Below are positions 8,316 through 63,280 of a stretch of DNA of 64,000 nucleotides, piece by piece. The notes under the pieces were generated by a model. It ran no database searches and had not been told where the DNA came from. It saw only the letters and a program-made list of their open reading frames with translations. This DNA is from Ostreococcus lucimarinus (taxonomy: Eukaryota): NCBI GenBank assembly GCA_000092065.1, contig CP000600.1. One strand, written 5' to 3'. The first letter of the stretch is position 1, and every line of letters starts with the position of its first letter. A program made the position numbers and the translations under genes.

Positions 8316-9304
8316 ATGCTCGCGAGCGCGCGCCTCGTCGCCCCCGCGTCCGCGTCGCGACGCCCGACGACGTCCCCGAGCGCGTTCCGCGCGCGCGCGT
8401 CGCGCGCGATCGCCGCGCGCGCCGGTAAGAAGCGTTCAATATTCGAAGGTGCGTCAGAGCGCACAGACGTCACGCGACCGAGACTGACGACGCCGCGCGC
8501 GCGCGCGACGCAGAGATGCTGGACGTCATGGAGGGTGGCCCTAAACTGCGCCGCTGGTACGGTTCCGATAGCTCCGTCGGCGACGGCACCGGAGCGTCGG
8601 GCGACGAGAACGGCGACGAGACCGCGGCGTACGGCGACGCCGACGAGGCCGACGAGGACGACGACGACGTCGAGTTGAACCTACCCAAGACGAGCATTTT
8701 GGTCACGAACGCGGACGGCGCGCTCGGAGAATCCATCGTGGTGCAATTGATATTGGCCAAGGCGAGCGTGGTGGCGGCGTGCGAGGCGGAACAGATCGTC
8801 GGCGCGGAGACGCGGTTCGGTCCGTACGTAAACGTGGTGTCGAACTCGATGAGCGCGGGAGCGCGGTTGAACGGCGTGCGCGCGATGGTGGTGACGGACG
8901 CGCTGGAGGAGGATTTATTAGCGGCATGCGTGCGGAGAGGGGTGAAACACGTCGTGCTGGTGTCGAGCGCGAAGAGCGCGGGCGGCGGGTTGTTTCCGAG
9001 CGCCAACGAAAAGGCTCGACGAGATAAAACGAGAGAAGAGCTGGCCAAGCGAAGCGGCGTCGCGCTCACCATCATTCGACCGTGCAGCGTGAAATCATCA
9101 CCGTCGCAAGGTCGAGAGATAAGATTTGGACAGGGCGACACGCTCACGGGGGAGGTGAGCATGGAGGATTTGGCAGAAGTGTGCGCTCGTGCGCTCACGC
9201 GTCCGCCGAAGCCCGGCGAATCTCTCGAGTTCGAAGTCTCCAACGGCGCCGCCGCCGCCGAGCGCGACTGGAAAGCGTTATTCGCACCTCTAGTCATCGT
9301 TTAG
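8316..9304 (+). CDS. NAD(P)-binding Rossmann-fold protein (atypical SDR / NmrA-like), probably plastid-targeted. It has 2 exons, 8316..8448 and 8514..9304.
   Basis: Exon 1 (MLASARLVAPASASRRPTTSPSAFRARASRAIAARAGKKRSIFE) looks like a transit peptide and ends at the donor g|GTGCGTC. A 65-nt intron carries GACTGACGACG and the acceptor CGCAG. Exon 2 carries the SILVTNADGALGESIVVQL glycine-rich dinucleotide motif. Confidence 0.55.
8449..8513 (+). other. Intron (65 nt) of the NAD-binding protein gene
   Basis: GTGCGT donor, ACTGACG branch box 22 nt before the CAG acceptor. It joins two ORF-track frames into one protein with a plausible transit peptide. Confidence 0.55.
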
Positions 9305-9360
9305 CTACGCTATACATTCTATCAATACAACACCGAATTCGTTTCGTTTCGTCCCGTGAG

Positions 9361-9693
9361 CTAAACCATCATCCAGCGCCAGCGCGTCGCCATCCACGCC
9401 TCGACGTCCACGTCCGCCCCCAATCCCGCGACGTCGTCCCCCGCGCGCGCCCCGATCGACAGCTCTTGCAACTCGCTCGCGAACGACGCCCAAACGACGC
9501 CGCACGCGAGCACGAGCGCGAGCGTGACGACGCGTAACACCCAGCCCTCGGTCGTCGTCGTCGCCGCGTCTGGCTTGACGAGCAGCGCGGCGCGCTCGCC
9601 GCGCCGACGCCGATCGGGATTTTCGTCTCGTCGCTTGTCGCGTCGCGCGCGCACGAACGGAAGAAAAGAGAAGACGGCGCCGAAGAGACCCAT
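9361..9693 (-). CDS. Small hypothetical membrane protein (110 aa, two hydrophobic segments)
   Basis: ATG-initiated minus ORF (CAT at 9691-9693) between two convergent genes. It has hydrophobic stretches LFGAVFSFLPFV and WVLRVVTLALVLACGVVWASF. There is no homolog, so it is reported with low confidence only. Confidence 0.25.
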   Translation of the reverse strand: MGLFGAVFSFLPFVRARRDKRRDENPDRRRRGERAALLVKPDAATTTTEGWVLRVVTLALVLACGVVWASFASELQELSIGARAGDDVAGLGADVDVEAWMATRWRWMMV

Positions 9694-9764
9694 CGCGCGG
9701 CGACGTCTGCGGTTCGACGCGGCGACGAGTGGCGAACTACGACGCTTCCTAATGACACGTCGAT

Positions 9765-10759
9765 CTAGGCAAGGTTACTCAGGGGAACCAGACTTTGAGG
9801 CGTGGTCGGCGCTCGACACAGCGGACACTCGGGCTTTTTGCTCGCCCACCCCGCGATGCAGCGCCAGCAAAAGACGTGACCGCACGGCGTCGCCGTCGGC
9901 GATTCGCGAGGCGAGAGGCAGAGCGCGCACTTGGCGGCGATCAAAGGCGACGTGGATTTCGATTTTCGAGACGCCGACGCGCCTTCGTCGACGGGATTAC
10001 CGAAGACGTCGAGCCGCGGCGATGCGACGATCGCGGCTTCGATCGCCGGCGAGCCGTCGGATTCGAGCACGCGCGCGCCGACGGACGGCGCCCCCGACGT
10101 CTCGCTCGACCCGCCCCCGCGCGCGAAGCTCGCGACGTTTTCGCACGTCACGACGGCGAGTTGAAACGCCACGAACACGCCTAACAGCGCGTAACTCGGC
10201 CGTTCCTCGCCCGCGTACGCCCCCGTGAACGCGCGTCTCGTCCCGCTCGCTCGGCAGCTCCAATCGTAATACTCCCCGTTCGCGTAAAACAGCGCCAAAT
10301 GCGCCGCGTTCGCGAACCCACCTCGCGCGTCGATCATCGCCTGCCCGTGCGACGTCGTCTCATCCCCCATCCCGCGCTCGACGCGTCGTCCCACGAGCGC
10401 CAGCGCCGTCCTCGCGCTCGCGTCCATCGCTCGCGTCGCCGCGCTCGTCTCCCCGCCCCCCAGCCCGACGCCGCGTTCGTGATTTCGCACCACGCACCCC
10501 CGCAGCTCGCGCGCGATCTCCTCGCCGAACGCATCGATCACGAACCGCGTCCAGAGCGCCCGCGCGCTCGATTTCCTTCCCCGCGCGTCCCCGCTCGCCA
10601 AGTCGCAGTACTCCTCGCCGAGCGTCGCGCGTCCGCTCAGGTACGTCAGCGCCGGGTACGCCGCCCGCCCGCACGCCCGCAGCGCGCGATTCCACCGCAC
10701 CGACAGTCGAGGTCCGAGCGCGCGCGCGCACGCGTCGTGCAGTCGCTCGGCCGTCGCCT

Positions 10760-10793
<34 letters not shown>

Positions 10794-10969
10794 TCGTCAG
10801 TCGTCAAAGTCGTTACGTCATCGCGTCGTCGCGTCGTCGCGTCGCGCGCGTCGTCGCGCGTCGCGCGCGCGTCCGGTGGACGCACCGCGGCGTGCGTCTC
10901 GTCCTTTTGCGCCGCGCGCACGACGTCGGGCCGCGCCGCGCGCGGGAATCCGCGCGAGCGCGTCGCCAT
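9765..10969 (-). CDS. PEX10: Peroxisome biogenesis factor 10 (RING-finger peroxin), 2 exons: complement(join(9765..10757,10886..10969))
   Basis: Exon 1 ([28 protein letters not shown]) matches the human PEX10 N-terminus (VIRAAQKDEYYRG). The minus-strand donor is GTGCGTCC, the branch ACTGACG sits about 36 nt before the acceptor CAG, and exon 2 continues [24 protein letters not shown]3HC4 RING ([39 protein letters not shown]). The ORF track 'start' at 10700 is a GTG inside exon 2. Confidence 0.7.
10758..10885 (-). other. PEX10 intron (128 nt) containing a (GCGTC)n microsatellite
   Basis: Minus-strand GTGCGT donor, (GACGC)n tract, ACTGACG branch (plus strand CGTCAGT at ~10795-10801), CAG acceptor. 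Confidence 0.6.
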
Positions 10970-11182
10970 GGATGCGTCCCGAAGTGCCGCGCCACGCGTC
11001 GACGCGCGCGCGTCGTCGCGCGCGCGTGCCACTCGCATATACGCGCGCGCGACGACGCGCGTCGCGCGGCATGGCGTCGACGGTCGAGCGCGTGGGACGC
11101 GCGCGCGCGCCGGTTCGGAAAACCATCCTCACGCATCCCGACGACGACGCCGACGCGCTCGCGCTCGGATGCGCGGTGCACG

Positions 11183-11273
11183 GTGCGTCGCGCCGCGTTT
11201 GAACGCGAACGGCGCGCGCGCGCGCGAGATCGGGGACTGACGCGACGCCGACGACGGCGCGACGCTTGAACAG
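11183..11273 (+). other. Candidate 5'-UTR intron (91 nt) upstream of the FKBP-like/TPR gene
   Basis: GTGCGTCG donor at 11183, GGACTGACGCG at 11234-11244, CAG acceptor at 11271-11273, 60 nt before the ATG at 11333. The two flanks cannot be joined into one frame with the CDS, so if real it is non-coding. Confidence 0.3.
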
Positions 11274-11332
11274 CGCACTTTTCGCTTCGCGACGCGACGA
11301 CGGGCGAGACGCTGCGCGACACGAGGGAAGAC

Positions 11333-12232
11333 ATGGAACCGATTCAGTTCACGCTGAGCGCGCGGACGGGCATCGCGGACGAGGAGGGAAGGACGCGCGA
11401 CGGCCCGGCGCGCGTGGAGGCGCTGGACGCGTGCGCGATGACGATGCGAGTGGGCGAGCGGGCGACGTTTGAGTGCGGGGCGGCGCTGGCGTACGGGAAG
11501 GAGGGGAACTTTTCGTTCCCGGCGGTGGGGAAAGACAGGGCGGTGGTGTTGGATTTGGAGATATTGGGCGCGCGGGGGAGCGCGGCGGCGCCGGAGATGC
11601 GACAGAGGGACATGACGTACGAGCAACGGGTGGAGCGCGTGCGCGCGCATCGATCGAACGGGAACGCGGCGTTCGCGGGGGGGCGCGCGCGCGAGGCCGT
11701 GCGCGAATACTCGATGGCGTTGACGTACTTGACGGAAGATTTTATGATGCAGTTGTTCGATAAGTACGAGGTCGAGGCGCACGAGGAGTTCGTCGCCGCG
11801 CACGGGAATTTGGCGGCGGCGTATTTGCGATTGGGCGCGTTCGAAGACGCGGTGACGCACGTCGGGTACGTCTTGAAGGTGGACGAGAACAACGCAAAGG
11901 CGTATTACAGGCGCGGTAAGGCGCGAGCGGGTTTAGGGCAGGAGGACGCCGCGAGAGAAGATTTTTTAAAGGCTAAGAAAATTACCGAAGCCGCGGGCCT
12001 CGTCGACGCGAACGTCGTCAAGGCGTTGCGAGAGATCGACGCGGCGATTCGTGATCGCGAGCGGGCGACATCGGCGGCGTTCAAGGGTATTTTCAATACG
12101 AAAACGGACGGTGGCGACGCATCGTCGAATGCCGACGCGAACGTCGCGCGAAAACCGCCGGATGGTGGCGGTTCGTTCATCTCTCGCGCAGTCGCGTCAT
12201 TATTTGGAAAATCGAGGCGCGAGGGGCCGTGA
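11333..12232 (+). CDS. FKBP-like PPIase domain plus TPR-repeat co-chaperone (AIP/FKBP-like family)
   Basis: N-terminal FKBP-like fold (MRVGERATFECGAALAYG..DRAVVLDLEILG). C-terminal TPRs (NGNAAFAGGRAREAVREYSMALTYL..AAHGNLAAAYLRLGAFEDAVTHVGYVLKVDENNAKAYYRRGKARAGLGQEDAAREDF). The ATG at 11333 has a good context (aagacATGG). Confidence 0.55.
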   Translation: MEPIQFTLSARTGIADEEGRTRDGPARVEALDACAMTMRVGERATFECGAALAYGKEGNFSFPAVGKDRAVVLDLEILGARGSAAAPEMRQRDMTYEQRVERVRAHRSNGNAAFAGGRAREAVREYSMALTYLTEDFMMQLFDKYEVEAHEEFVAAHGNLAAAYLRLGAFEDAVTHVGYVLKVDENNAKAYYRRGKARAGLGQEDAAREDFLKAKKITEAAGLVDANVVKALREIDAAIRDRERATSAAFKGIFNTKTDGGDASSNADANVARKPPDGGGSFISRAVASLFGKSRREGP

Positions 12233-12259
12233 GCGCGACACCTCGACGCGTGAAGCAGC

Positions 12260-14218: not shown

Positions 14219-14267
14219 GTTCTAGAATCGCTCGCTCGCTCACGTACATTTCATGTTCATTTTACAA

Positions 14268-15572: not shown

Positions 15573-15907
15573 CGCCCCTCGCGCTCTCGCGCGCGCCGCC
15601 GAGCGCCCGCGCGGTTCCCTCGTCGCGTGCCTCGACGACCGTCGTCGTCGCGGCGCGTGCGCGAGCGTCGCGCTCGCCGTCGACGCGCGGTGTCGCGCGT
15701 CGTCGTCGCGCGCGCCGTCCGACCGCGACGACGTCGTCGGCGTCTGAATCGTCGTCGCGTCGCGCGCGCGCGTCGACGCGCGCGCGCGTCGACGCGCCTC
15801 CAGCGCCGCGCGCATCGCGTCGCGTCGTCGACGTCGACGGGGCGTCGCGTCGTCGCGCGACGCGCGATGACGAACGATCGATGCGTGGACGGTGGTCGAC
15901 GCCGACG

Positions 15908-15928
15908 CCCTAAACCCTAAACCCTAAA
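15908..15928. repeat. Interstitial telomere-type repeat (CCCTAAA)3, i.e. a telo-box-like element, in the divergent spacer between CSN3 and the glutaredoxin-like gene
   Basis: gCCCTAAACCCTAAACCCTAAAaaa, the reverse complement of the plant-type telomere unit TTTAGGG. It lies about 340 nt from each flanking ATG. Confidence 0.8.
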
Positions 15929-16004
15929 AAATTTAGGATACTTCACTCAAGGAGAGCTTTTAGATGATATATTCATCAAAGCACCACGATCTCATCCGCG
16001 CGCC

Positions 16005-18763: not shown

Positions 18764-20631
18764 ATGGGCGCGACCGATGGGACGAGCGCGCGCGAGGCGC
18801 GTCGAAAGGCGCGCGAGTTGGAGGAGGGTCGAAAGGTGCGCGCGCGCTCGCGCGCCGAGCGCGTCGACGCGTCGCGCGAGCGACGCGCGGACGACGCGCG
18901 AGGACGATTTCGTCGCGCGCCGCCCGCCATTCCTCGCGACATTCGTTTCGTCGCGCCTCGACGCGACGCGACGCGCGCGACGGCGGTGGACTGACGGCGA
19001 CGACGCGTTCGCGCGCGCTCCAGGCTGGGTTGATCCCGCACGAGATCGATGAGGACGGGAACGCGATCAACCCGCACATTCCTCAATTCATGGCGGCGGC
19101 GCCGTGGTACCTGAAGCAAGACGGGCCGGGATTGAAACATCAAAAGGCGCCGAAAAAAGCCGAAGAGAGCGCGGAGTGGTACAAGAGAGGCGTGACGACG
19201 ACGAAGGCGACGAAATTTCGTAAGGGGGCGTGCGAGAATTGCGGAGCGATGACGCACAAGAAGAAGGATTGCATGGAGCGGCCGCGCGCGAGAGGCGCGA
19301 GCAAGACGCAAAAGGACATCGCGGCGGACGAGTACGTGCAACCGGAGTTGAAGCTTGGGTTTGAGAGTAAGCGCGATCGGTATAACGGATTCGATGTGGA
19401 TGATTACGTCAAGGTGGTGGAGCGATACGAGGCGGCGGACGCGATGAAGCAAAAATTGGCCAAGCAAAAAGAGTTGGAACGCGCGTTTCGGCGGGCGAAT
19501 AAAAAGGAGGACGACGCGGCGAGCGACTCGGATTCGGACGATACGAGCTCCGACGACGACGACGACGACGACGCGAAGGTTGCGGATAAGGCGGCGACGG
19601 GGTTTGCAAACATCAAACGCGCGGTGCGCGCGCCCGGAGGGGGCGCTTCCGGCACGGTGCGTAACTTGCGTCTTCGCGAAGACACGGCGAAATATTTGCG
19701 CAACCTGGATGTGGATTCGGCGTACTACGACCCAAAGACGCGCTCGATGCGCGAGAATCCGACGCCGAACGCCGATCCCAAAGACAACTTCTTCCGCGGT
19801 GATAACGCGGCGCGAAATGACGGGCAAGTGGTGGAGTTTGAGCGTTTGAATCGTCACGCATGGGAGCAGGCGGAAGCCGGCGGCGCGAGCGCCATTCACA
19901 TGCAAGGCGCGCCGTCGCAAGCCGAGGCGCTGTACAAGCAATTCAAAGAAAAGAAGGAAAAGCTCGCGGGAATGAATAAAAAGAACATCATGGAAAAGTA
20001 CGGCGACGCGAGCGCGGGCAAAGAGCTTCCCGACGGTTTGGCGCTCGGTCAAACGGAGCAATACGTCGAGTACGACCGCGCGGGCCGTCTCATCAAGGGA
20101 ACCGAAAAAGCCACGGTGAAGAGTTGTTACGAGGAGGATGTCCTTTTGCAAAATCACACCAAGGTTTGGGGCTCGTACTGGAACGCCGGTCAGTGGGGTT
20201 ACGCGTGTTGTCAAAGCATGGTGAAGAACTCGTATTGCACGGGCGAGCGCGGCGTCGAAGCCGCGCTCGCGAGCGAGCAACTCATGGTGGACAACATGGA
20301 GAACAAGCGCGCGATGGACGAGGCGAACGAAGCGCGAGCGAAGTCGCAGCTCAACGCGACGACGAAACCGAGCGATCTGTGGGGTGGTGATGTCAAGGAT
20401 GACGTCGAGATCGATCCTCAAAAGCTCCTCGAAGCCTTGAAGCGGCAAGACGAACGCGAGGAAGCGCTCAAGCGCGGCGGCGACGGGAAGAACAAGCGCG
20501 GGTACAACGTCACGCACGATTCGCAAGTCACGGCGGAAGACATGGAGGCGTATAGGATGAAAAAGCGCGCATTCGAGGACCCGATGAAAAAAGCGTCGGG
20601 CGCGGGGACCGATGGTTACGATCTAGTGTAG
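18764..20631 (+). CDS. SLU7: Pre-mRNA-splicing factor SLU7 (CCHC zinc knuckle), 2 exons: 18764..18835 and 19024..20631
   Basis: Exon 1 MGATDGTSAREARRKARELEEGRK matches human REDWRKKKELEEQRK. It then runs through a GTGCGC donor, a 188-nt intron with GGACTGACGG and CTCCAG, and exon 2 AGLIPHEIDEDGNAINPHIPQFMAAAPWY..CENCGAMTHKKKDC. The ORF-track N-terminus (18580-) overlaps DSCC1 and is untranslated. Confidence 0.8.
18836..19023 (+). other. SLU7 intron (188 nt)
   Basis: GTGCGCGC donor, ACTGACG branch 40 nt before the CAG acceptor. It restores the conserved SLU7 N-terminal motif. Confidence 0.65.
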
Positions 20632-22699: not shown

Positions 22700-23146
22700 C
22701 TACACCGCGCGCTCCGCTAACTCTAACTCTAACAGTTCCCTGATCCCTCGCTCGATCTCCGCGAGCGACGTCTCGACTTCTCGCAGCGCGTTCGCCGCCT
22801 CGACCTCTCGCGTCGCCGCGTCCCGCCTCGCGTCTCGCGCCCTCCCCAGTCCCTCGTCCACCGTCATCTCCGCCATGAACCCCAGTCCCACGTCCACGAA
22901 CACCGTGCGCGCGTCGTGCGCCCGCGCGCGCGCGCGTATCTCCCCTCCCACGTCCACCAGCGCGTCGAAACCGCCGCCGTCGCCGTCCTCTCGCAACCGC
23001 GACAGCTTCGCCTCGAGCGCCTCCCACGCCTCGCGGTCCTCGCGCGCGTCCTCGAGCGCGCGCGCGCGCGTCGCGCGCTCCGGCACCAGCGTCTCGCGCG
23101 CGACCGCCGCGCGCGCGACCGCGTCGCCGCGCGCGCGCGACGTCAT
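22700..23146 (-). CDS. Prefoldin-alpha-like protein (UXT-like), 148 aa
   Basis: Coiled coil - beta hairpin (TVFVDVGLGFMAEMTVDEGL) - coiled coil, typical of prefoldin alpha/UXT. The ATG is at 23144-23146, and the upstream part of ORF 22700..23503 is S/R-rich junk. Confidence 0.45.
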   Translation of the reverse strand: MTSRARGDAVARAAVARETLVPERATRARALEDAREDREAWEALEAKLSRLREDGDGGGFDALVDVGGEIRARARAHDARTVFVDVGLGFMAEMTVDEGLGRARDARRDAATREVEAANALREVETSLAEIERGIRELLELELAERAV

Positions 23147-23174
23147 TCGTCGTCGCGTCGAGGACTGACGCCCC

Positions 23175-23708
23175 ATGCTCGCGCGCCGCGACGCCCTCCT
23201 GAGCGCCGCGCTGAGCGCCGGCGCGCTCGCGCGACCGCGACGCGCGCGCGCGGCGCCGGCGCCGACGTTCGCGCCGACCAGGGACGGCGTGCGGTTCCGC
23301 GACGCGCGCGTCGGCGACGGACCCGAGGTGTTCGCGCACGACGCCGTCGTCATCCTCTTCACCGCGCGCGTCCTGCCGAGCGACGACGGCGCGCTCGATC
23401 GGCGGCGCGCGGGGGACACGTTCGATCCGTTCGTCGTCGGCGGCGCGGGCGCGAGCGCGTCGAAGGGATTCAAGCTGGAGATTGGGAGCGCGACGAATGA
23501 CATTCCGGAGGGCTGGGCGCGCGCGTTCGAGGGCGACGGCGACGCGATGCCGCGGATGCGAATCGGTGGGAAACGAATCGTGCGGATACCGCCGAGCTTG
23601 GCGTACGGCGAGCGAGGGCATCACTGTCGAGACGGCGTGCGAGGGGCGTGCGAGGTGAACCCGGGGGAGAGCGTGGAGATTGACTTTGAGATTCTTCGGT
23701 ACACGTGA
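23175..23708 (+). CDS. FKBP-type peptidyl-prolyl cis-trans isomerase, lumenal/plastid type (Cys pair in the C-terminal region)
   Basis: FKBP fold (GDGPEVFAHDAVVILFTARV..GDTFDPFVVGGAGASASKGFKLEIG..IPEGWARAFEGDGDAMPRMRIGGKRIVRIPPSLAYGERG). The transit-like N-terminus is MLARRDALLSAALSAGALARPRRARAAPAP. The ATG lies 28 bp from the divergent UXT-like ATG. Confidence 0.65.
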   Translation: MLARRDALLSAALSAGALARPRRARAAPAPTFAPTRDGVRFRDARVGDGPEVFAHDAVVILFTARVLPSDDGALDRRRAGDTFDPFVVGGAGASASKGFKLEIGSATNDIPEGWARAFEGDGDAMPRMRIGGKRIVRIPPSLAYGERGHHCRDGVRGACEVNPGESVEIDFEILRYT

Positions 23709-23721
23709 CGCGTCATCGTCG

Positions 23722-24687
23722 CTATCGATGCTCGTCGTCGGAGACGGTCGTCGCGGCCTGGGCGAGGGCTTTCTTCTTTAGCATCCATTTCGGCGCGTCG
23801 TCGCGGCGGGGCGACAACGCGCTTACCGAAGCCGGCGCGACGCCTTTCGCCTTGGCCTCGAACACGCCGTCGTCCTTCGCGGCGGCGCCGATGGCGACGA
23901 TGTACGATTTCTTCTCGTCTCCGGACGGAAGCGCGGTGAATATCTGCGCGAAGACGACGACGTTCGGGTCCTTCAAATTCACCGAGACTTCGCACTCGGC
24001 GTCGGCGTCCTTGAACGCTCGCTCGCACGCCTTCGCAATCTTCGGCACCATCACCGCGCGCCCGTGCGCGACGTCGGACGCGTCCGTGTCTTCCTCGCTA
24101 ACGCTAGCGGTGCTATCCACCCTCTTGTTATACACCACCGCGAACGCGATCGATTTCGATCTCGCGTCTTCGCTCCGCGCGCGCGTCTCCCGCACGACTC
24201 TCTCCACGCACGCTCGCATCCCGTCCTCGTCCCCGACCTCGAACGCGCCGTCGATCGGGTACATCTTGTATAAAAATTCCGACCCCTCGTCCTTCCCTCC
24301 TCGCACGTCGTCGAGCGCTCGTTTCACCGTCGCCGTCGCCGTCCGCGCCGAGCCGCCGCCGCTCGCCGCCATCAACAGCGCCCCCCTCGCCGGCAGTTTC
24401 ACCGGCGCGTACGCCGAGTCCTCCCCCAGCATCCGTCGCAACGCCGCCGTCGCGCTCTTCTCTCTCGATTGCCGGCACGTCGCGAACACCGCTCGGACGG
24501 CGCCGTCGCCGTCGCCGCGCTCGAGCAGCGTCGCCCGCAGCGTCGCGTACGCGAACCTCCGAAACTCGCCCGCGCCGCGCGCGCGCTTCGCGTCGCCGCC
24601 GTCGTCGTCGTCGGCGTCGTCGCGCGGCGCTCGGCGTCGCATCTGCGCCTCGGCGGCGTCGCGCAGGCGCGCCGACGGCGACGACAT
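23722..24687 (-). CDS. THUMPD1: THUMP-domain protein (THUMPD1 / Tan1-like tRNA acetylation adaptor)
   Basis: The C-terminal half has a THUMP-like fold (VSVNLKDPNVVVFAQIFTALPSGDEKKSYIVAIGAAAKDDGVFEAKAKG). The ATG at 24685-24687 is embedded in a CATG shared with a + strand ATG. Confidence 0.5.
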   Translation of the reverse strand: MSSPSARLRDAAEAQMRRRAPRDDADDDDGGDAKRARGAGEFRRFAYATLRATLLERGDGDGAVRAVFATCRQSREKSATAALRRMLGEDSAYAPVKLPARGALLMAASGGGSARTATATVKRALDDVRGGKDEGSEFLYKMYPIDGAFEVGDEDGMRACVERVVRETRARSEDARSKSIAFAVVYNKRVDSTASVSEEDTDASDVAHGRAVMVPKIAKACERAFKDADAECEVSVNLKDPNVVVFAQIFTALPSGDEKKSYIVAIGAAAKDDGVFEAKAKGVAPASVSALSPRRDDAPKWMLKKKALAQAATTVSDDEHR

Positions 24688-24847
24688 GGATTTCGGCGCC
24701 AAAACGCCGCGCAGTGACGACCGACGTCGTCGTCGTCGCGCGCGCCGGGCGCGCGCGATACCGCGCGAAGGCGCGAGCGCGCCGTTCGCATCGTCGTCGT
24801 CGTCGTCGACGGCGCGTGTGAGTCGAACGGCGCGACGGGAAGGCGCG

Positions 24848-27800: not shown

Positions 27801-28915
27801 GAATATCCGCCCAAGAAGAAGCCGAGCGAGGCCAGGGCGCTCGCGGTTCGCTCGCTGCGCTCCTGCAAGCGGACTCCGCGGCAAAGCAATGGAACATGGA
27901 TGTCATCGCTGCCGCGAGCAGTGGTGGTGCGACATGTGCGGTAAAGATCGTTAAAGTGCGCGACGGTACAATAGTTGACGTCTACGGTACGAGTGTGGAT
28001 GTGCCGAATGCCACAGCGGACGACGCCATCGCCGAGGCCACTCTAGCCGAAGCCGCACAGCTCGTCGCCGAGCAGATGTACTTGAGCGAATTCTCCGATC
28101 GCCCGGACATGGTGTACATCCCGCACACTATCGCAGAACCGATGAACTTACGCGCAGCGCTTCGTCACACCGGCGTCGGCGCCAACGCGACGAAGAAGAG
28201 TAAGGTCTTGCACCACGGTGCCGCCAAGGAAGGATCGCTCCTCGAGGCGCTCGCGGAAATGGCACTCGAGAACGCCGACGAATCCGCGCGCGCAACGGCG
28301 GTGAAATCCGCCGCGGCGCTTCGCTTAAAGGACGCCATCGGACTCGATGAGTCCCCCACGAGCATCGAAGGCGTGGACGTTTCTCATCTCGCCGGCCAGA
28401 ACGCTGTGACGAGCTTTGTTCGATTCGAGGGAGGTTCGCCGGCGCCGCTCAAGCATCGCCGATACCAGCTCAGTGAAGCCGTAACACCAAGCGACGACTA
28501 TGGTGGTATCGCTGAGTCAATAACCGCGCGCTTGGCGTCCAAGAGCAAACTTCCGGACGTCTTTCTCATCGACGGTGGAGTCGGCCAACTCACCGCGGCG
28601 GCGCACGCGCTTCGCGAAGGCGGCGTCGTCATCTCAAACATGATCGACGACGACAACACCCCGATCGCCGATTCCAGCGCAAAGGCACATCGAACCGTTG
28701 CCTTGTGCGCGCTCGCCAAGGGCCGAAGCAGCGGTGAAGAGGCTCTATGGGTCCCCGCGCTCTCGCCCGGAGGCGTCGTCATGGGCCGAAAAGTCGACGA
28801 CGCCCACCTTGACGCGCTAAAACTTCTCCGTTCGGTGCGCGACAGCGCCCACGCCGTGGCGCTCGGCGCGCATCGTTCTTTACGTCGCGAAGAGCGACTA
28901 AACGCCTTCGCTTAG
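24848..28915 (+). CDS. uvrB-uvrC: UvrB-UvrC fusion protein: complete bacterial-type excinuclease B helicase followed by UvrC GIY-YIG and RNase-H-like endonuclease domains. Single exon, N-terminal R/A/T-rich presequence.
   Basis: UvrB: [151 protein letters not shown]..helicase C ([29 protein letters not shown]). UvrC: [30 protein letters not shown] (GIY-YIG)..[80 protein letters not shown]. An alternative in-frame ATG at 24686 would add 54 aa and overlap the THUMPD1 start. Confidence 0.8.
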   Translation: [1355 protein letters not shown]

Positions 28916-35846: not shown

Positions 35847-36171
35847 CGCGGCGCCGATGCCGGCGGCGGCGGCGGCGGTTCGAGCGCGGCGACGACGCGC
35901 GCGACGACGCGTTCGAGGCGCGCGCGACGGGAGCGCGCGCGATGAACGTTCGTACCCGCGGCGGGTGTCGTCGCGAAAGTCGCGCGGGCGCCGAGACGAC
36001 GGGGCGTCCGTCTGTGCGGCGCGGGTTTTCAGTCGGTTGGAGCGACGGCTCTGCGAGGTCGCGTCGCGGAGAAGAAATGGATGAAACACTCTAAAGCTCG
36101 ATTTGATCACACGCGAGACTACGGCGCTCGCGAACGATGTTGTTGTGTAGATCTATGGAGACTATGTTTTG

Positions 36172-46533: not shown

Positions 46534-46792
46534 CGTCGCGACGCGCCGCCGCGAAGCGCCGCCGCGACGCCGCCGACCGCGCGCGCGCGAGTGCCTCGTT
46601 CGCGCGACGGATCGGGCGACGGACGGGTTTTAGTATTGCGTCGTATCCCAAACCCTAGGATACAATATACATATTCAACGACCCAGTAGACGCATCGGCG
46701 CGCGCTGTAGATATACACGACACCGCACTGTATGCGCACACACGCAATCCGCGAGCCGGTCGCGATCGCGGCACACCTCGACGCATCCCGCG

Positions 46793-49700
46793 ATGCGCGC
46801 GCACGTCACCCTCCGCGCGGCGACGCCCGCGCGCGCCGCCGCGACCGTGCGCGCGGGCCGACGACCGTCCGCGATGCGCGCCGACGCGGCGCCGACGCGC
46901 GCGACGAGCGCGCGCGTCGCGTACGGCAACGCGTCGACGACGACGCTCAAGCTCGACGCGCGAGGCGCGACGCGAAGGCCGACCCTAGGCGGGGGGCGTC
47001 GACGATTCGAGACGCGCGCGATGTTTGAGGTGCGCGCGACGCGACCGCGAGGGCGGGGCACGCGAGCGTGTATTTTGATGCGTCGCGGACGCGGCGCGGA
47101 GGGGGAGGGGCGACGCGGGAGAGGACGAGGGACTGACGAGACGATGGCTTCGATCGACGCGCGCGCAGCGGTTCACGGAGAAGGCCATCAAGGTGGTGAT
47201 GTTGGCGCAGGAGGAGGCGCGGCGATTGGGGCACAACTTCGTCGGGACCGAACAGGTGAGTGGAGAGAATATTGAACGCGCGAACGGGCGCGGATTCGGG
47301 GCGCGGGGAAGGGGTAGGGCGGCGTCGGGGGGGACGCGGAGGACGCGACGTTAGGTTTAAGCGGGAAGGCGCGGCGCGCGGGGAACGCGCGGCGGCGTCG
47401 CGGGCGCGAGGAACGCGAGGACGGCGCGCGAGGACGCGTGGGAGGGGTGGAAGATGCGCGCGCGCGCGCGCGACGGCGCGATACGGACGGTGACTGACGA
47501 GACGGCGTTCGCGACGCGACAGATCATGCTCGGTTTGATTGGCGAAGGCACCGGCATCGCGGCCAAGGTGCTCAAGTCGATGGGCATTTCGTTGAAGGAA
47601 GCGCGCATCGAGGTTGAGAAGATTATTGGACGCGGTTCCGGTTTCGTCGCGGTGGAGATTCCGTTCACGCCGCGCGCGAAGCGCGTGTTGGAGCTCGCGC
47701 TCGAGGAGGCGCGCCAGTTGGGCCACAACTACATCGGCACCGAACACTTGTTGCTCGGTTTGCTCCGTGAAGGCGAGGGCGTGGCTGCGCGCGTGCTCGA
47801 AAACCTCGACGCCGACCCGGCAAAGATTCGTTCTCAAGTGATTCGCATGGTTGGTGAGACGCAAGAAGCCGTCGGCGCGGGCGCCGGCGGCGGCCAAGGC
47901 GCGCAATCCGGCTCCAAGACGCCGACTTTGGAAGAGTTCGGTAGCGACCTCACCAAGAAGGCTGAAGAGGGTAAGCTCGATCCGTGCATCGGTCGTGCGA
48001 ACGAAATCGTTCGCGTCACGCAAATTCTCGGTCGCCGTACCAAGAACAACCCGTGCTTGATTGGTGAACCGGGCGTCGGTAAGTCTGCCATTGCCGAAGG
48101 TCTCGCGCAAAAGATTGCCGCCAACGACGTTCCGGATACTCTCGACTCCAAGCGTATGATGACGCTCGATATGGGTTTGCTCGTCGCCGGTACCAAGTAC
48201 CGTGGTGAGTTCGAGGAGCGTCTCAAGAAGCTCATGGACGAAGTGAAGAGTGATGAAAACATCATCCTTTTCATCGACGAAGTCCACACGCTCATCGGCG
48301 CCGGCGCGGCGGAGGGCGCCATCGATGCGGCGAACATCTTGAAGCCGGCCTTGGCGCGTGGTGAACTCCAGTGCATCGGTGCGACGACTATTGACGAGTA
48401 CCGCAAGCACATCGAGAAGGATCCGGCGCTCGAGCGTCGTTTCCAACCGGTTCAAGTTCCGGAGCCGTCGGTGGATGAAACCATTCAAATTCTCCGCGGA
48501 CTCCGCGAGCGTTACGAATTGCACCACAAGCTCAAGTACGATGACGACGCTTTGATCGCCGCCGCAAAGTTCTCGAGCCAGTACATCTCCGATCGTTTCT
48601 TGCCGGACAAGGCGATCGATCTCATCGATGAGGCTGGTTCTCGCGTGCGACTGGAAAACGCCGCCCTCCCGGAGGAAGCCAAGGAACTCGATAAGGAGCT
48701 CAAGGCTTTGATGAAGGAGAAGGATACGGCCATCCGCTCTCAGGATTTCGAAGCCGCTGGTGGCCTTCGTGATCGCGAAGTCGAGCTCAGAGCTCAAATC
48801 AAGCAAATCACCGAGCGAAAGCAAGAGGAGAACAAGGCGAAGGCTGAATCCGGTGACGCGTCTGGTCCGACGGTGGTCGAGCAAGACATTGCCGATATTG
48901 TCGCCGCCTGGACTGGTATCCCCGTCGATAAGGTGTCTTCCGATGAAGGTACCCGATTGATGGACATGGAAGAAACCCTTCACAAGCGATTGGTTGGTCA
49001 AGAAGAAGCCGTCGTGGCGTGCGCTCGCGCCATTCGCCGCGCCCGTACCGGCTTGAAGAACCCGAACCGTCCGGTCGCGTCCTTCATCTTCTCCGGTCCC
49101 ACTGGTGTCGGTAAATCCGAGCTCGCCAAGTCCCTCTCTGCCTTTTACTTCGGTTCCGAAGAAGCCATGGTTCGTCTTGATATGTCCGAATTCATGGAGC
49201 GCCACACTGTTTCCAAGCTCATCGGTTCCCCGCCGGGTTACGTCGGTTACTCTGAGGGTGGTCAGCTCACCGAGGCTGTTCGGCGGCGTCCGTACACCCT
49301 CGTGCTTTTCGATGAAATCGAAAAGGCGCACCCGGATGTGTTCAACATGATGCTTCAAATCCTCGAAGACGGTCGCTTGACCGACTCCAAGGGTCGCGTG
49401 ATTGACTTCAAGAACACCCTCATCATCATGACGTCGAACGTTGGTGCGTCGGCGATTGAAAAGGGTGGCGGTGGATTGGGCTTCCAACTCGACGACAACG
49501 CGGAGGATCAGTCCTACAACCGCATTAAGAGCTTAGTCATGGAAGACTTGAAGAACTACTTCCGACCGGAATTCCTCAACCGTCTTGACGAAATCATCGT
49601 GTTCCGTCAACTCAACAAGCAAGAAGTGCGAGAAATTGCGTACATCATGCTCGAGAACGTCTTCAAGCGCCTTAAGGAGAAGGAAATCGTCCTCGAATGC

Positions 49701-49949
49701 ACGGAGCGATTCAAGGATCGTCTCGTCGACGAGGGTTTCTCTCCGGCGTACGGTGCGCGTCCTTTGCGTCGCGCCATCATGCGCTTGCTTGAGGACAACC
49801 TCTCCGAGAAGATGCTCACGGGTGAGATTTCGGAGGGTTCGTCGTGCATTATGGACGTGAACGCGGAAGGTGAAATCACGGTGTTGACTGGCGACGGTAG
49901 AGAGCTGAAGGCTGGTAGCGCGATCGGTGGTCCGGCTGGCATCGCGTAA
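46793..49949 (+). CDS. CLPC: Chloroplast ATP-dependent Clp protease ATP-binding subunit ClpC (Hsp100), 3 exons: 46793..47029, 47169..47255, 47523..49949
   Basis: Exon 1 is the transit peptide and ends ..RAMFE. Exon 2 is [29 protein letters not shown]. Exon 3 is [21 protein letters not shown].., followed by two AAA+ modules ([16 protein letters not shown]; [14 protein letters not shown]) and a UVR-like linker. Both introns have GT..ACTGACGAG..CAG. Confidence 0.85.
47030..47168 (+). other. ClpC intron 1 (139 nt)
   Basis: GTGCGCGCG donor after the MFE codons, GGGACTGACGAG branch, GCGCAG acceptor. It restores the conserved [12 protein letters not shown] junction. Confidence 0.75.
47256..47522 (+). 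other. ClpC intron 2 (267 nt), G-rich, similar to the uL11c intron
   Basis: GTGAGTGGAGAGAATATT donor region, internal TTAGGTTTAAGCGGG and GGGAGGGGTGGAAGA, GTGACTGACGAG branch, GACAG acceptor. It restores ..GTEQ|IMLGLIGEG. Confidence 0.75.
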
Positions 49950-50256
49950 TTCTAGGCTGCGAGAACGCTTAAAAAATGATTGATTACAAAATGACTTTTG
50001 TTCTTTGGGGGTCACCCCATCATCAGCGTCGGAGCCTGTGTTATTAGGCGATTTAGATTACGTGTCTCTCACGCATGTTATACGATGAAACGAGCGAATT
50101 AACACCCGCGCGCGCCGAACCACATAAGTGACCTCTTCTCCTCTGAGCTCGTCAGTCCACGACACGGCCCGAATTCTCAGAGCAATTTGACAGATTGTTT
50201 TGATTGTTTGTATCGATTATCACAACTGTTGTATGTTCGTAACGTCGCAACGAATC

Positions 50257-53495: not shown

Positions 53496-54476
53496 ATGTT
53501 CGCGCGAACCATCGGCCGCGCGCGCCCCGCGCGCGCGACGCCCGCGGACAAGCGCGCGGACAAGCGCGCGGCGGCGACGCGCGCGATGACGCGCCCGGTC
53601 GCGCTCGGCGACGCGCGCGCGGTATTTACGACGAGCGCGTTCAGGGCGAACGCGGTCGAGCGCGCGCGCGACGTGCGCGCGCGCGGGGCGAGACGGTCGA
53701 CGGTGATGGCGGCCAAGGTGGCGGGGTACATCAAGCTCGCGATCGAGGCGGGGAAGGCGTCGCCGGCGCCGCCGATCGGACCGGCGCTCGGCGCGAAGGT
53801 GCGTGAGAATATTTCGTTCGACGCGACGACGGCGCGCGCGGGACGCGCGCGCGGACGCGCGCGAGGGAGGGGTGGGAGAACGCGCGCGGCGGGTGAGGGT
53901 GGAAGACCTAGGCGAGAGAGGGTTTCGCGCGGCGACGCGAGCGCGCGAGGGACGACGGCTGGGCGCGACGCGCGGGCGCGGTGGCGAGGGAGACGCGCGC
54001 GCGATGGATCGATGGTCGCGGGGGACGCGCGCGGCGCGGTCGGGACGCGAGTGGTGCGGTGAATCGACGCGAACGGCGACTGACGACGACGACGACGCGC
54101 GCGCGCGATTCGCGGCACGCAGGGCGTGAACATCATGATGTTTTGCAAGGAGTACAACGCGCGCACGCAAGATCAACCGGGTATGATCATCCCGGTCGAG
54201 ATTACCGTTTTCGAGGATAAGTCCTTCACGTTCATTTTGAAGACCCCGCCGGCGTCGGTGTTGTTGAAGAAAGCCGCGGGCGTGCCCAAGGGGGCGGGCG
54301 ATCCGCAAAAGCAAGTCGTCGGGCGCGTGACCAAGGAGCAACTCGAGGAAATCGCCAAGATTAAGATGCCCGATTTGAACTGCGTCAAGGTGGAAAGTGC
54401 GATGAAGGTCGTCGCCGGTACCGCGGCGAACATGGGGATCAAGATTGACGGCTGGCCCGAGGTCGACGCCGCGTAA
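53496..54476 (+). CDS. RPL11: Chloroplast ribosomal protein uL11 (nuclear-encoded), 2 exons: 53496..53798 and 54123..54476
   Basis: Exon 1 is the transit peptide plus [32 protein letters not shown]. The donor GTGCGTGAG and a 324-nt intron carrying GGCGACTGACGACG and CACGCAG follow. Exon 2 is [53 protein letters not shown].. (the L11 signature). Confidence 0.85.
53799..54122 (+). other. uL11c intron (324 nt), G-rich, related to ClpC intron 2
   Basis: Shares GAGAATATT near the donor, GGGAGGGGTGG, GGTGGAAGA and a GAGGGTTTCGCGCGG element with ClpC intron 2. The branch ACTGACG lies 48 nt before the acceptor. Confidence 0.75.
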
Positions 54477-54742: not shown

Positions 54743-55254
54743 CTACTTCTTCAACTCCCGGTGAAGCGTGTGCTTTTGCAAGAACGGATTGTACTTCATC
54801 AACTCCAATCTCTGCGACGTGTTACGACGGTTCTGCGAATCGAAAACGAGCGCGCCTCCGTCAGTCCTTCGTCCCGAAACCCTCAAATCGTCCCGTCGTC
54901 CCATCCCTCGTCGTCCCGCGCCGTCCCGCGCCGGCCTCGGCGCGCGTCCCGCGCGCGCCCGCTTCGCCTCGCGTTCGCCCGCGCGTCATCGCTTACCTTC
55001 TGGGTCATGTATCGCGACATCCCCTGCACGCCGCTCTCCTTTTGCTCGGTGCACTCGAGGGTGACTTGCAGGCGCACGTCCTTCTTCTTGCTCGCCGCCG
55101 TGACGACGAGCGCGCCGCGCGAGCGCTCTCTGGCGCTCGCGGCCGACGGGCGCGCGGCGAGCGAGCTGGTGGAGCAGACGTTGGCGCGGGCGGCGAGCAT
55201 GGCGAGTCGCGGCGCGGAGTGCCGGCGCGGCGATCGGGCGGCGGACGTCGGCAT
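54743..55254 (-). CDS. RPL33: Organellar ribosomal protein bL33, 2 exons: complement(join(54743..54832,54997..55254))
   Basis: Exon 1 is the presequence plus [29 protein letters not shown]. The minus-strand donor is GTAAGC, the branch ACTGACG (plus strand CGTCAGT at ~54859-54865) is followed by CAG, and exon 2 is [29 protein letters not shown]. Compare E. coli L33 ..[33 protein letters not shown]. Confidence 0.7.
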
Positions 55255-55388: not shown

Positions 55389-56082
55389 ATGTCCGCCGAC
55401 GCCTCGACGCGACGATTCAAGATTTACACCAAGACGGGCGACGCGGGGACGAGCTCGCTGTACAATTGCGAACGACGCGATAAGGACGACGCCGCGTTCG
55501 ACGCGCTCGGGGACGTCGACGAGTGCAACGTCGCGTGCGGGATCGCGCGGGAGTTTTGCGTCGATGAAAACAACGGGCTCGAGGCGCAGGTGCGGCGTCG
55601 ACGACGACGGACGCGAGGGGAGAGAGCGAGGCGACGACGCGCGGCGAGCGACGACTGACGGGGACGACGAACGACGCGACGCGCAGCTCGCGGAGATTCA
55701 GAGTCGATTGCTCGACGTGGGATCGGCGGTGGCGACGCCGCTGTATGCAAGCTCGGACGCGATGAAAGCGCGCGCGGCGTTTTCGGAGACGCACGTGGAG
55801 ACGTTGGAGGGATGGATCGACGGGATGGACGCCGAGTTGCCGGCGCTGTCGAGTTTTCTGCTCGTGTCGGGGGGGAAGGCGAGCGTGTTTTTACACCAAG
55901 CGCGCGTCGTGTGTCGACGCGCGGAGCGTAGGTGCGTGCCGTTGGTGCGGAGCGGAGCGGTACCGGACGTGGTGCGGGTGTACTTGAATAGATTGAGCGA
56001 TTACATGTTCACCGCCGCGCGTTTCGCGGCGATGAAAGCGGGCAGAGAGGAGGAGGCGTACAAAAAGTCGACGGCGAATTGA
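55389..56082 (+). CDS. MMAB: Cob(I)alamin adenosyltransferase, PduO/MMAB type, 2 exons: 55389..55589 and 55687..56082
   Basis: Exon 1 KIYTKTGDAGTSSLYNCERRDKDDAAFDALGDVDECNVACGIAREF. A 97-nt intron (GTGCGG..GACGACTGACGGGG..GCGCAG). Exon 2 LAEIQSRLLDVGSAVATP..LEGWIDGMDAELPALSSFLLVSGGKASVFLHQARVVCRRAER..YLNRLSDYMFTAARFAA. It is collinear with human MMAB. Confidence 0.8.
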
Positions 56083-57866: not shown

Positions 57867-57904
<38 letters not shown>

Positions 57905-58628: not shown

Positions 58629-58779
58629 CGCGCGAGGTCGCGGCGGCGCGGCGCGAGGCGAGACGACGGACGGTCGTCGAGTGCGGGCGCGGCGCGCGAA
58701 CGCGGCGGTTGGTCTGGCGAGCCGACGCTCGGCGCGCGAATGGTTAAAAGCTACTACGTGCGCGCGCGCGTCGGTGAAT

Positions 58780-60648: not shown

Positions 60649-62007
60649 CTCGCCGAGCCGTTCGGCGTCTCGATCGCGCGTCTCAATCGCGCCGCGCGTC
60701 GCCTCGAAGCTCTTTCGCGATGCTTTTTGAAATCCAAAAGATCTCGCGTTCGCGTCGCGTCGTCCGCCGTTCGCGCGTCGTTCGCGCGTTCGCGCGTTCG
60801 CGCGTTCGAGACCGCGACCGAGGCGCTTCGGCGCGCGGTCGCTCGCCTCGTCGCGCGCGCGGTCGCGGCGTCGGCGTCCGCGGCGTCGCGCGCCGCGCGT
60901 CGCGCACAGGGAGGCGAGCGAAACACGGACCAGTCTCACGGATACGAAACGACACAACACGGACCGGTGACCCGAAACGACGCCGACGGTCGCGCGCGCC
61001 GTCGACGCCGACGCGCGCGACGACGATGGCGCGCGCGCCGGCGACCGACGGCGGCGACGCGGCGTCGGCGTTTCGCGCGCGCGATGACGGCGCGAGACGC
61101 GCGTATAACGTCGAGATCCCGGCGGCGTGGCAGCGCGAGAGCGTGGACGAGTCGCTGCTGCGAGGGCACAGAAGCGCGTGTACAACGGCAACGCGCACTG
61201 ATCGTCGTACGCGTACACGCCTCGCGATCGCCCCGAGCGCCGAGGAGGGCGCCGCGACCGTCGCCCTCCTCGAGCGAGGTTTCGCGAACGCGCTTGCTCG
61301 CGACGAGCTCCGGCGCCGCGCAAAGCTTCGCGAGACGACTCGCAGCCGCGCGCGCACATATCGCTCGGTCGCCCGCGTCTTGACCGGGCGCGAGCGCGAT
61401 TTGCGCGAGCCGCGCGAAATTTCGGTCCCCCGCGACGCGCGCGTTCTCCGCCACGCGTCGTTGGCGTCGCAGAAACTTTTTCGCGTGCGTCTTCTTCGTC
61501 ATGCCTCCATGTGACGTTTCGTCTCGGCGTCTCGACCTCGTGACGCGCGCCTCGGACGCGCGCGAGGGCACCTCGGCACTCTGCGACGCGCGCGCGACTC
61601 GGCGCGGTCGTCGCGGACGCGTCGCGAGAGAAGAAAAAAAGTCGAGCGTCGAACCGCGCGTCGTTCGAGCGCCGCGCCGCGGCGCGCGCGACGCGCGGAC
61701 GCGCGAGATGGGGCGCGTTGAAGCGGCGTTTCTCGGCGCCGGATCCCGCCTCGGGCGGCGCCTCGGGCGTCGCGCGCGCGACTAGCAAGACACGAAAACG
61801 AAGGAAAGAAAGCGGGTACGAATTCTTTTGAATCGATGTGCGCGGCGATGGACGCGCGCGCGCGCGTTCGCGCGCCGACTCGCGCGATCGTCATCTCCGA
61901 GACGGGCCGCGCAGACTGACCCTCGCGCAGAGGCCGACGCCAGAAGACACGCGAAACAAGGCGGCGATAGCGTACAAACTATCGCTCGCCTGCGGCAGGT
62001 TAACCCA

Positions 62008-62034
62008 GGGTTGACCCAGGGTTGACCCAGCCGC
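62008..62034. repeat. 11-mer tandem repeat GGTTAACCCAG/GGTTGACCCAG x3 in the long SSRP1-Cpn20 spacer, about 350 nt upstream of the Cpn20 ATG
   Basis: caggttaacccagggttgacccagggttgacccagccgcag. Confidence 0.75.
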
Positions 62035-62380
62035 AGCATTACACCCTCGCGACGCGAGGACGCGAAGGAGGGACAGCTCGCTCGCGCGATCTCGTAGCCC
62101 TCGAAAGTAGCGATTGTAATGCGCCGGAAGACTTCCATCGAGTCGCTTCGCCGAGAGAGCGCCGACGACGTCGAGCGCGGCGCCGCCGTCGCAGACGCCG
62201 CCGCCTCCCCGCGCTAGCCTACCCTCCCAATATTAGTATACTTCACCCACCGTCGTTTTCTTCCCCATCGCGCGTCGCGCGACGACGTCCACGACGTCTC
62301 CAAATTCCGCGCGCGCCGCGGAGGCGTCCTTCCAGAAGCCGACGCCGCGCGCGCGTCCTCATTACTCGCCGCACATCCGA

Positions 62381-63280
62381 ATGTTCGCCGTCTCCGCGCA
62401 CTCGCGCGCGCGCATCGCGCCCGCGGTCATTCCGCGCGCGCGCGCGCGCGTCGTCACGCGCGCCGGCGCCGCGTTCGAGGTGCCGTCGGCGTACAAGACG
62501 GTGACGCCGTGCGGCGCGGGCGTCTTAATCAAGGTGGCGGCCGCGGAAACGGTGACCAAGGGCGGGATCGTGCTCACGGAGAGCGCGCAGCGCAAGCCCA
62601 CGAGCGGTGCGTCGACGCGTTCGACCGACGCGCGCGCGCTCGAGGACGGGCGACGCGACCGCGCGACGCGCGCGGGGGATAAAGGACGACACCCTAACCT
62701 TGAGGGTTTGACGGCGGGACGCGCGGCGAGACGCGCGAGACGCGAATGGATCGACGCGCGAACGCGAGCGACGCGCGAAGACTGACGACGATGACGAATG
62801 AATCGCGCAGGCGACGTCACGGCGATCGGACCGGACGTGAAACACGTCAAGACCGGTTCCACGGTGTTGTACAGCAGATTCGGCATCGGGTGCACCGACG
62901 TGGTCGTCGCCGGCGAGGAGTACACGATGATTCGAGAACAAGATCTCATCGGTACGCTCCCGAGCAGCGGCGCGCGCGCGAACGATATCCCAAAGCTTCA
63001 ACCTTGCGGCGATCGCGTCCTGTTGTCGGTGGAGAAGGCGGCCGCGGAAACCAAGGGGGGCATCTTACTCACGGAGGGGTCCAAGGAGAAGCCCATCGTC
63101 GGCACCGTCGTCGCCGTCGGGCCGGGCAAGGCGGGCGAAAAAGACGAAGAAGTCAAGCCGATGACCCTGAAGGCGGGCGACAAGGTGATTTACTTCAAGT
63201 ACGCCGGTGACCAAATGACCGACGAGGAAGGCAACGGCTTCGTCGTCTTGCACGAGAGCGACTGCTTGGCCAAGCTTTAA
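62381..63280 (+). CDS. CPN20: Chloroplast 20 kDa chaperonin Cpn20 (tandem GroES domains), 2 exons: 62381..62606 and 62811..63280
   Basis: Exon 1 is the transit peptide plus VTPCGAGVLIKVAAAETVTKGGIVLTESAQRKPTS(G). A phase-1 donor g|GTGCGTCG and a 204-nt intron with GAAGACTGACGACG and CGCGCAG follow. Exon 2 is (G)DVTAIGPDVKHVKTGSTVLYSRFGIG.. and a second GroES domain LQPCGDRVLLSVEKAAAETKGGILLTEGSKEKPIVGTVVAVGPGK.. Confidence 0.8.
62607..62810 (+). other. Cpn20 intron (204 nt) containing CCCTAACCTTGAGGGTTTGACGG
   Basis: GTGCGT donor, ACTGACG 24 nt before the CAG, phase-1 split Gly codon. It carries a telomere-unit-like CCCTAA / GGGTTT pair. Confidence 0.7.

Follow-up and report, generated by a model that had tools for sequence, protein, structure and literature searches.

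We analyzed the introns of a 64,000-nucleotide stretch of the Ostreococcus lucimarinus genome (contig CP000600.1 of assembly GCA_000092065.1; "the window" hereafter), where ten segments share a GTGCG donor, an GACTGACG box, and a CAG acceptor, and we conclude that they almost certainly belong to the canonical class of spliceosomal introns in Mamiellophyceae, which are of the ordinary U2 type (GT-AG) and reside on the normal, GC-rich chromosomes of these algae. Their boundaries, the removal of five of them from RNA, and the conservation of their signals across species are directly observed. The architecture had been proposed from the letters of the window alone (the sequence-only reading); it is real, was correctly interpreted, and was already published in 2008, when Irimia and Roy (PLoS Genet 4:e1000148; PMC2483917) reported that, among 319 O. 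lucimarinus introns outside chromosome 2 confirmed by expressed sequence tags, 87.2% carry ACTGAC and 66.5% carry GACTGACG, with an atypical donor consensus GTGCGTG (4.8 bits). In that study the introns of chromosome 2 are without these signals. Also in print are the confinement to normal chromosomes, the bias toward 5' ends, and the finding that U1 shows no compensating change.

All ten segments start with GT and end with AG at the coordinates given by the sequence-only reading, and donor, box, and acceptor are present in each. The donor is GTGCG in eight introns (the intron at 47256 has GTGAGT and the one at 54996 on the minus strand GTAAGC), and AG precedes it on the exon side in seven; the 8-mer GACTGACG occurs in 10/10, always on the sense strand, and between its presumed branch A and the 3' splice site there are 25-39 nucleotides (nt), which agrees with the proposed range of 20-48 nt. 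Two parts of the proposed consensus hold less strictly: the acceptor is (C/G)CAG in eight introns (GCAG in seven, CCAG in one) but ACAG in the other two, and the base after ACTGACG is A or G in nine but C in the candidate at 11183. Pyrimidines make up 30-52% of the bases between box and acceptor, so that there is no polypyrimidine tract. The introns are 65-324 nt long (1,667 nt in total) and have 74% G+C (G 44%, C 29%, A 17%, T 9%) against 63.6% in the window. They are spread over 9 of the roughly 37 genes, one or two per gene, seven in phase 0 and three in phase 1, and the suspected clustering at the 5' ends of genes is borne out, as 72-324 coding nt separate each donor from its start codon. 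Removing each GT...AG segment restores a single open reading frame (ORF) in 10/10. In reading frame, absence from mRNA (five introns), donor GTGCGY, and ACTGAC/GACTGACG box, the set has the features of the canonical U2-type class.

Splicing itself is documented by RNA-derived contigs that encode the spliced proteins, drawn from JGI samples and from Logan assemblies of sequencing runs such as SRR28369057, SRR28369058, SRR28369074, and SRR28369094. When these are aligned to the window the gaps fall exactly at the introns, and exact exon-exon 40- or 50-mers are found for five of them, each removed precisely as predicted. The two ClpC junctions occur as 40-mers in six contigs (L005-L010); the gene (46793-49949, plus strand; coding sequence 46793-47029, 47169-47255, and 47523-49949; 916 aa) holds intron 1 at 47030-47168 (139 nt, phase 0; GTGCGC, box 47131-47138, GCAG) and intron 2 at 47256-47522 (267 nt, phase 0; GTGAGT, box 47492-47499, ACAG). 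For uL11c (53496-54476, plus strand; coding sequence from 53496 or 53586 to 53798 and 54123-54476; 218 or 188 aa), the intron at 53799-54122 (324 nt, phase 0; GTGCGT, box 54078-54085, GCAG) is absent from two contigs with an exact junction 50-mer (L001 and L002), and a 218-aa ORF is called on the spliced L001. Three contigs (L001-L003) carry the junction 50-mer of bL33 (54743-55200, minus strand; coding sequence 55200-54997 and 54832-54743; 97 aa), whose intron lies at 54833-54996 on the minus strand (164 nt, phase 0; GTAAGC, box 54859-54866, GCAG). The MMAB intron at 55590-55686 (97 nt, phase 0; GTGCGG, box 55653-55660, GCAG), in a gene at 55389-56082 (plus strand; coding sequence 55389-55589 and 55687-56082; 198 aa), is spliced out in one contig with the junction 40-mer (L004), and the junction is likewise covered by a transcript protein from MMETSP (P0036).

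Deposited protein models already use eight of the ten introns. Our spliced models are residue-identical to the O. lucimarinus CCE9901 deposits for bL33 (XP_001422677) and MMAB (XP_001422511), and also for PEX10 (XP_001422663), SLU7 (XP_001422502), and Cpn20 (XP_001422512), an exact identity that marks the window as strain CCE9901. PEX10 (9765-10969, minus strand; coding sequence 10969-10886 and 10757-9765; 358 aa) has its intron at 10758-10885 (minus strand, 128 nt, phase 0; GTGCGT, box 10795-10802, GCAG). SLU7 (18764-20631, plus strand; coding sequence 18764-18835 and 19024-20631; 559 aa) has one at 18836-19023 (188 nt, phase 0; GTGCGC, box 18989-18996, CCAG), and Cpn20 (62381-63280, plus strand; coding sequence 62381-62606 and 62811-63280; 231 aa) one at 62607-62810 that splits a Gly codon (204 nt, phase 1; GTGCGT, box 62780-62787, GCAG). 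The deposited uL11c (148 aa, P0065) crosses the junction GPALGAK|GVNIMMFCK and starts further downstream than the spliced model, and the deposited ClpC (XP_001422509, 840 aa) equals the spliced model with both introns out, beginning at the Met of MFERFTEK (47021). Upstream of MFERFTEK the ClpC frame is open back to MRAHVTL in four transcripts (L005, L006, L008, and L009), which supports a longer ClpC with a transit peptide.

The two introns missing from the deposit are those of the NAD(P)-binding protein (NADb) and of an FKBP42-like protein with FKBP and TPR domains (FKBP/TPR), and in both cases the deposited protein begins at an ATG after the intron. NADb (8316-9304, plus strand; coding sequence 8316-8448 and 8514-9304; 307 aa, with a transit-peptide-like exon 1) has its intron at 8449-8513 (65 nt, phase 1; GTGCGT, box 8482-8489, GCAG), and its deposit XP_001422498 (262 aa, start 8516) is the unspliced downstream ORF. 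The same is true of XP_001422499 (299 aa, start 11333) and FKBP/TPR (11071-12232, plus strand; coding sequence 11071-11182 and 11274-12232; 356 aa), with a candidate intron at 11183-11273 (91 nt, phase 1; GTGCGT, box 11235-11242, ACAG). Exact look-up of the full-length models returned no match for ClpC (916 aa), NADb (307 aa), FKBP/TPR (356 and 389 aa), or uL11c (188 aa); the miss for ClpC arises because the transcripts differ from the model by one amino acid. The earlier claim that the intron signals rescue eight gene models thus stands against the raw ORF track, but against the public annotation the gain is an added exon for two proteins and a transit peptide for two.

Some of the segments, 8449-8513 and 11183-11273 above all, might be chance combinations of signals, with the deposited single-exon models correct; the deposit does start both proteins after the putative intron, and no transcript contig was found for either. 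We consider this very improbable, since the upstream exons are conserved elsewhere (R(S/G)(I/L)F(E/D) in NADb; an FKBP strand plus DDDADA in FKBP/TPR). We compared the window with the syntenic loci of O. tauri (L025, GCA_000214015.2) and of three Ostreococcus-like metagenome lineages (L022, L029, and L030), and with the more distant loci of Bathycoccus prasinos (L026) and Micromonas pusilla CCMP1545 (L028). O. tauri FKBP/TPR has an annotated intron of 112 nt (GTGCGT...CGACTGACGA...CAG) at the codon of the 11183 candidate, separating the same two parts of the protein, and splicing it out gives the deposited O. tauri protein (P0271) exactly; the intron is also present in L029 and L030, and the 11183-11273 junction restores the FKBP strand CAVH|AHFSL. 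For NADb, a single ORF in O. tauri, L029, and L030 joins the counterparts of exons 1 and 2 directly and runs across the junction (RSIFE|EMLDVMEGG in the window versus RGLFDDVLDMLEGG and similar) with the conserved pattern R(G/S)LF(D/N)..(L/I)D.LEGG; the continuous ORF in three lineages therefore validates the splice and makes the 65-nt intron specific to the O. lucimarinus lineage. Together, the transcript and orthology data exclude chance combinations, and the ten segments are introns with the boundaries first proposed, on the strength of RNA junctions for five, deposited models for eight, and orthologues for the other two.

Most of the remaining introns are also shared with other lineages. 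The uL11c, bL33, and Cpn20 introns sit at the same codons in L022 and keep GTGCG(T/C), GACTGACG, and (C/T)AG (GTGCGT, GACTGACG, and TAG in Cpn20), with exons about 75-87% identical to the window and intron bodies that are largely unalignable. The uL11c position is kept in Bathycoccus (GTACGG...ACTGAC...TAG) and M. pusilla, and the bL33 position in M. pusilla. The SLU7 intron has its O. tauri orthologue, 155 nt long, at the same codon (GTGCGC...GGACTGACGG...TAG). The PEX10 intron is found in O. tauri, L029, and L030 after a conserved exon 1 (RA(A/S)QKD); gene-range arithmetic and protein alignment had suggested that O. tauri is without it, and this was overturned by the DNA, which shows exon 1, donor, box, and acceptor. 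The deposited O. tauri PEX10 (356 aa, MIHSPH...) begins at an ATG inside the intron (L025, CAID01000014.2, about 9560-9900, minus strand), and the true exon 1, MSTPLGGFPAAAPPDVVRASQKDDAVAS, lies upstream, followed by GTGCGC...GACGACTGACGAA...CAG.

Population loci at least 99% identical to the window (L011-L018) are too close for footprinting and served for polymorphism only. Across eight or nine loci at this identity, substitutions fall in intron bodies and none falls in a box or an acceptor. At 54996-54991 (minus strand), the bL33 donor is polymorphic at two bases, +3 and +4: the reference reads GTAAGC, and the population loci L012 and L015, like L022, read GTGCGC.

The uniformity of the signals could also reflect the recent spread of a mobile introner-like family, the ten introns being copies of one element. 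The NADb and MMAB introns are lineage-specific and among the shortest of the set (65 and 97 nt), and the IE-C introners of Micromonas RCC299, about 67 nt long, carry the same GACTGACG motif (PMC3879977). Copies of one element should, however, be identical over the intron body, and within our sample of ten introns they are not: pairwise alignments of bodies alone give just (CG)n and (GACGCG)n low-complexity matches, and the local score of NADb against MMAB, 12, amounts to no similarity. Most positions are moreover shared with O. tauri, L022, Bathycoccus, or Micromonas and are therefore old. We judge an introner origin highly unlikely. The MMAB intron is precisely absent from L022 and Bathycoccus, and M. 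pusilla is without a canonical intron there; its absences and those of the NADb intron both leave a clean exon join. Either recent gain in the O. lucimarinus lineage or repeated loss elsewhere would explain the two. GCGCAG ends both MMAB exon 1 and the MMAB intron.

Counts of the box in the window were compared with those in 100 shuffles. By itself the 7-mer ACTGACG is not enriched (14 copies versus 9.7 expected; 12 of 100 shuffles reach 14), but GACTGACG is, with 12 copies versus 4.2 +/- 2.2 expected, a count reached by none of the shuffles, and GACTGACG followed by CAG 12-32 nt on occurs 8 times versus 0.97 expected. Ten of the 12 copies are those on the sense strand of the ten introns. The enrichment inside introns is partly circular, because the sequence-only reading picked introns by scanning for the box; the independent test is the reality of the junctions, and the junctions are real. 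The two copies outside introns lie at 23163 (plus strand), immediately upstream of the start codon of FKBP2, and at 50150 (minus strand), in the 3' intergenic region between MCM and ClpC, where a transcript contig (L007) crosses the site unspliced and without gaps. Four extra ACTGACG sites (5680, 23164, 33722, and 50150) were considered as introns and rejected, as they fall in coding, antisense coding, 5', or unspliced 3' sequence.

The two copies outside introns would suit a reading in which GACTGACG is a protein-binding or transcriptional element that lies near intron 3' ends by chance. Such a role is extremely improbable in our estimation: the box matches the universal branch consensus CTRAY, it is strand-specific (10/10 sense) and held at 25-39 nt from the acceptor, it is kept in orthologous introns, and genome-wide studies interpret the motif as the branch point (PMC2483917; PMC3879977).

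As a branch-point sequence, GACTGACG would act within a conventional splicing mechanism that combines few introns with near-invariant splice signals, as in other intron-poor eukaryotes. The donor AG|GTGCGY would be read by the U1 and U6 small nuclear RNAs (snRNAs) despite the mismatch from C at +4. ACUGAC would pair with GUAGUA of U2 snRNA, with a G-U pair where yeast has A-U, and the second A of the box would be the bulged branch nucleotide; the first suitable YAG 25-39 nt downstream would then serve as acceptor. A strong branch box presumably carries most of the recognition of the 3' end in place of a pyrimidine tract, as in budding yeast. The 5' position of the introns would fit the standard model, in which loss mediated by reverse transcripts preferentially removes 3' introns.

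Several points weigh against assigning all ten segments to ordinary U2-type splicing with this mechanism. That a lariat would form at the box, and that the snRNAs would pair as described, is extrapolated from established splicing biochemistry. An Rfam scan of the window gave zero matches, so no snRNA gene was found in it. The donor GUGCGU mismatches standard U1 at +4, and five Mamiellales genomes have U1 snRNAs with the standard pairing region and hence no compensating change for a GYGCGY donor (Roy and Bowser 2022, bioRxiv 10.1101/2022.06.08.495308). No transcript contig was recovered for the introns at 8449, 10758, 11183, 18836, and 62607, and the case for these five is built from deposited models and orthology.

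We found no additional intron in the window beyond these ten, in a search that fell short of an exhaustive check against transcripts. A relaxed scan for GTRHG...CTRAC...AG with coding-potential flanks returned, beyond the known introns, only in-frame false positives in continuous ORFs. Single-exon ORFs reproduce the deposited proteins in full for FKBP2, adenylosuccinate lyase, a protein kinase, SNF2, HAD, and SSRP1, and in the syntenic 21 kb of O. tauri the gene range exceeds the coding length only for FKBP/TPR and SLU7, the misannotated PEX10 being the exception.

Three of the introns also contain the sequence GAGGGTTT, which resembles a telomere repeat or telo-box (AGGGTTT/AAACCCT), on their sense strand: uL11c at 53918-53925 (plus strand), bL33 at 54877-54884 (sense of the minus strand), and Cpn20, as TGAGGGTTTG, at 62701-62710 (plus strand). 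All three are nuclear genes for plastid proteins, and the 8-mer GAGGGTTT has only five copies in the window on both strands. The motif is kept in the orthologous introns of L022 (positions 3339, 4265, and 10579) as TGAGGGTTTG, AAGACCTAGG..GAGGGTTT, and GATTT(G/C)AGGGTTT, and survives there despite exon divergence of about 20% and intron bodies that are largely unalignable. M. pusilla (L028; 3353 and 4879) has it reversed in its uL11c and bL33 introns (CCCTAAACCCTC and AAACCCTA), and these are the only two copies in the 7-kb locus; the flip in orientation argues for a site in double-stranded DNA and against an RNA signal. Among three retrieved papers in which telo-box and Ostreococcus both appear, we saw no description of this intronic motif. 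Promoter-located telo-box-like sites occur as well: a plant-type interstitial telomeric repeat, (CCCTAAA)x3, at 15905-15930 in the divergent intergenic region of CSN3 and GST, and a single AAACCCTAGG at 46645-46660 between the divergent start codons of SNF2 and ClpC. It is conceivable, though we think it rather unlikely, that this extremely compact genome has kept some of its 5' introns for the sake of a regulatory element, acting at the DNA level, that they carry. If so, the motif would link intron retention to expression control and offer a concrete explanation of why, as has been reported, introns are in excess among highly expressed genes of O. lucimarinus.

Other features of the window lie outside the intron set. 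Of eight near-identical population contigs, five (L012, L013, L015, L016, and L018) do not match the 0.94 kb or so at 61178-62121, in the interval between SSRP1 and Cpn20; in L012 and L016 the replacement was read and is unrelated, coding-looking sequence of about 1.1 kb, and L014 diverges from the window past position 62095. The locus appears to be dimorphic or hypervariable, and Pfam recognizes no gene in it. A 1,741-aa ORF at 23690-28915 (plus strand), with UvrB-like helicase, UvrC GIY-YIG, and RNase H-like endonuclease domains, is an apparent UvrB-UvrC fusion. The gene for the largest subunit of RNA polymerase I (30624-36152, minus strand) lies in an island of 52-58% G+C in a window of 64%. 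At 23146-23175, prefoldin (minus strand) and FKBP2 (plus strand) stand head to head with starts apparently within about 30 bp, which implies overlapping 5' regions. The metagenome contig ERZ24794573 k141_261005 (L019), in which positions 1-5978 contrast with the rest of the locus, is 99% identical to the window over ClpC-MCM and only 74-87% from uL11c onward; two Ostreococcus species have been assembled into a chimera, or else the contig is a recombinant.

The discovery value of the window is small, the signals having been published, and its practical value lies in correcting gene models. With these signals, two O. lucimarinus proteins (XP_001422498 and XP_001422499) gain an exon at the N terminus, transit peptides are supported for ClpC and uL11c, and one O. 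tauri annotation is corrected, the PEX10 model that starts inside its intron. The two lineage-specific introns and the telo-box-like motif are small, testable leads to what keeps introns in a minimal eukaryotic genome.

The closest known system is the set of canonical introns outside chromosome 2 described by Irimia and Roy (2008), from the same organism and with the same signals, of which the window is a local sample. Nothing essential differs, beyond the extended box in 10/10 introns of the window and two introns that go beyond the 2007 annotation. The canonical introns of Micromonas RCC299 and CCMP1545, described by Verhelst et al. (2013; PMC3879977), share AG|GTGCGT, NCTGAC, the preference for the 5' part of genes, and few introns per gene; their branch motif lies 43-52 nt from the acceptor, in contrast to 25-39 nt in the window, and the two M. 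pusilla introns that we read have C-rich pyrimidine tracts, whereas those of the window have none. The introners of Micromonas (IE-A to IE-D) are likewise functional introns on the sense strand within genes, IE-C with the GACTGACG box, but they are highly identical over their whole length, whereas the introns of the window share only signals and CG-rich low complexity. BOC1-type introns, from the low-GC outlier chromosome region of Mamiellophyceae, are spliceosomal and reside in the same genomes, but are 40-65 nt long, AT-rich, many per gene, and without a recognizable donor or branch consensus; the window introns, with 74% G+C, 65-324 nt, strong signals, and one or two per gene, do not belong to that type. 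The comparison with Saccharomyces cerevisiae is the thesis of the 2008 paper (PMC2483917), and the likeness is broad: both genomes are intron-poor, with near-invariant donor and branch signals, 5'-biased introns, little reliance on a pyrimidine tract, and a donor whose mismatch to U1 at +4 is not offset by a change in the snRNA. The sequence-only reading, which held the box to be as constrained as the yeast TACTAAC, slightly overstated this, since ACTGAC is found in 87% of confirmed introns genome-wide (outside chromosome 2) versus 94% for ACTAAC in yeast (PMC2483917). The signals themselves differ, yeast using GUAUGU and UACUAAC/ACUAAC where the window has GUGCGU and ACUGAC, and the likeness is an independent convergence in a green alga.

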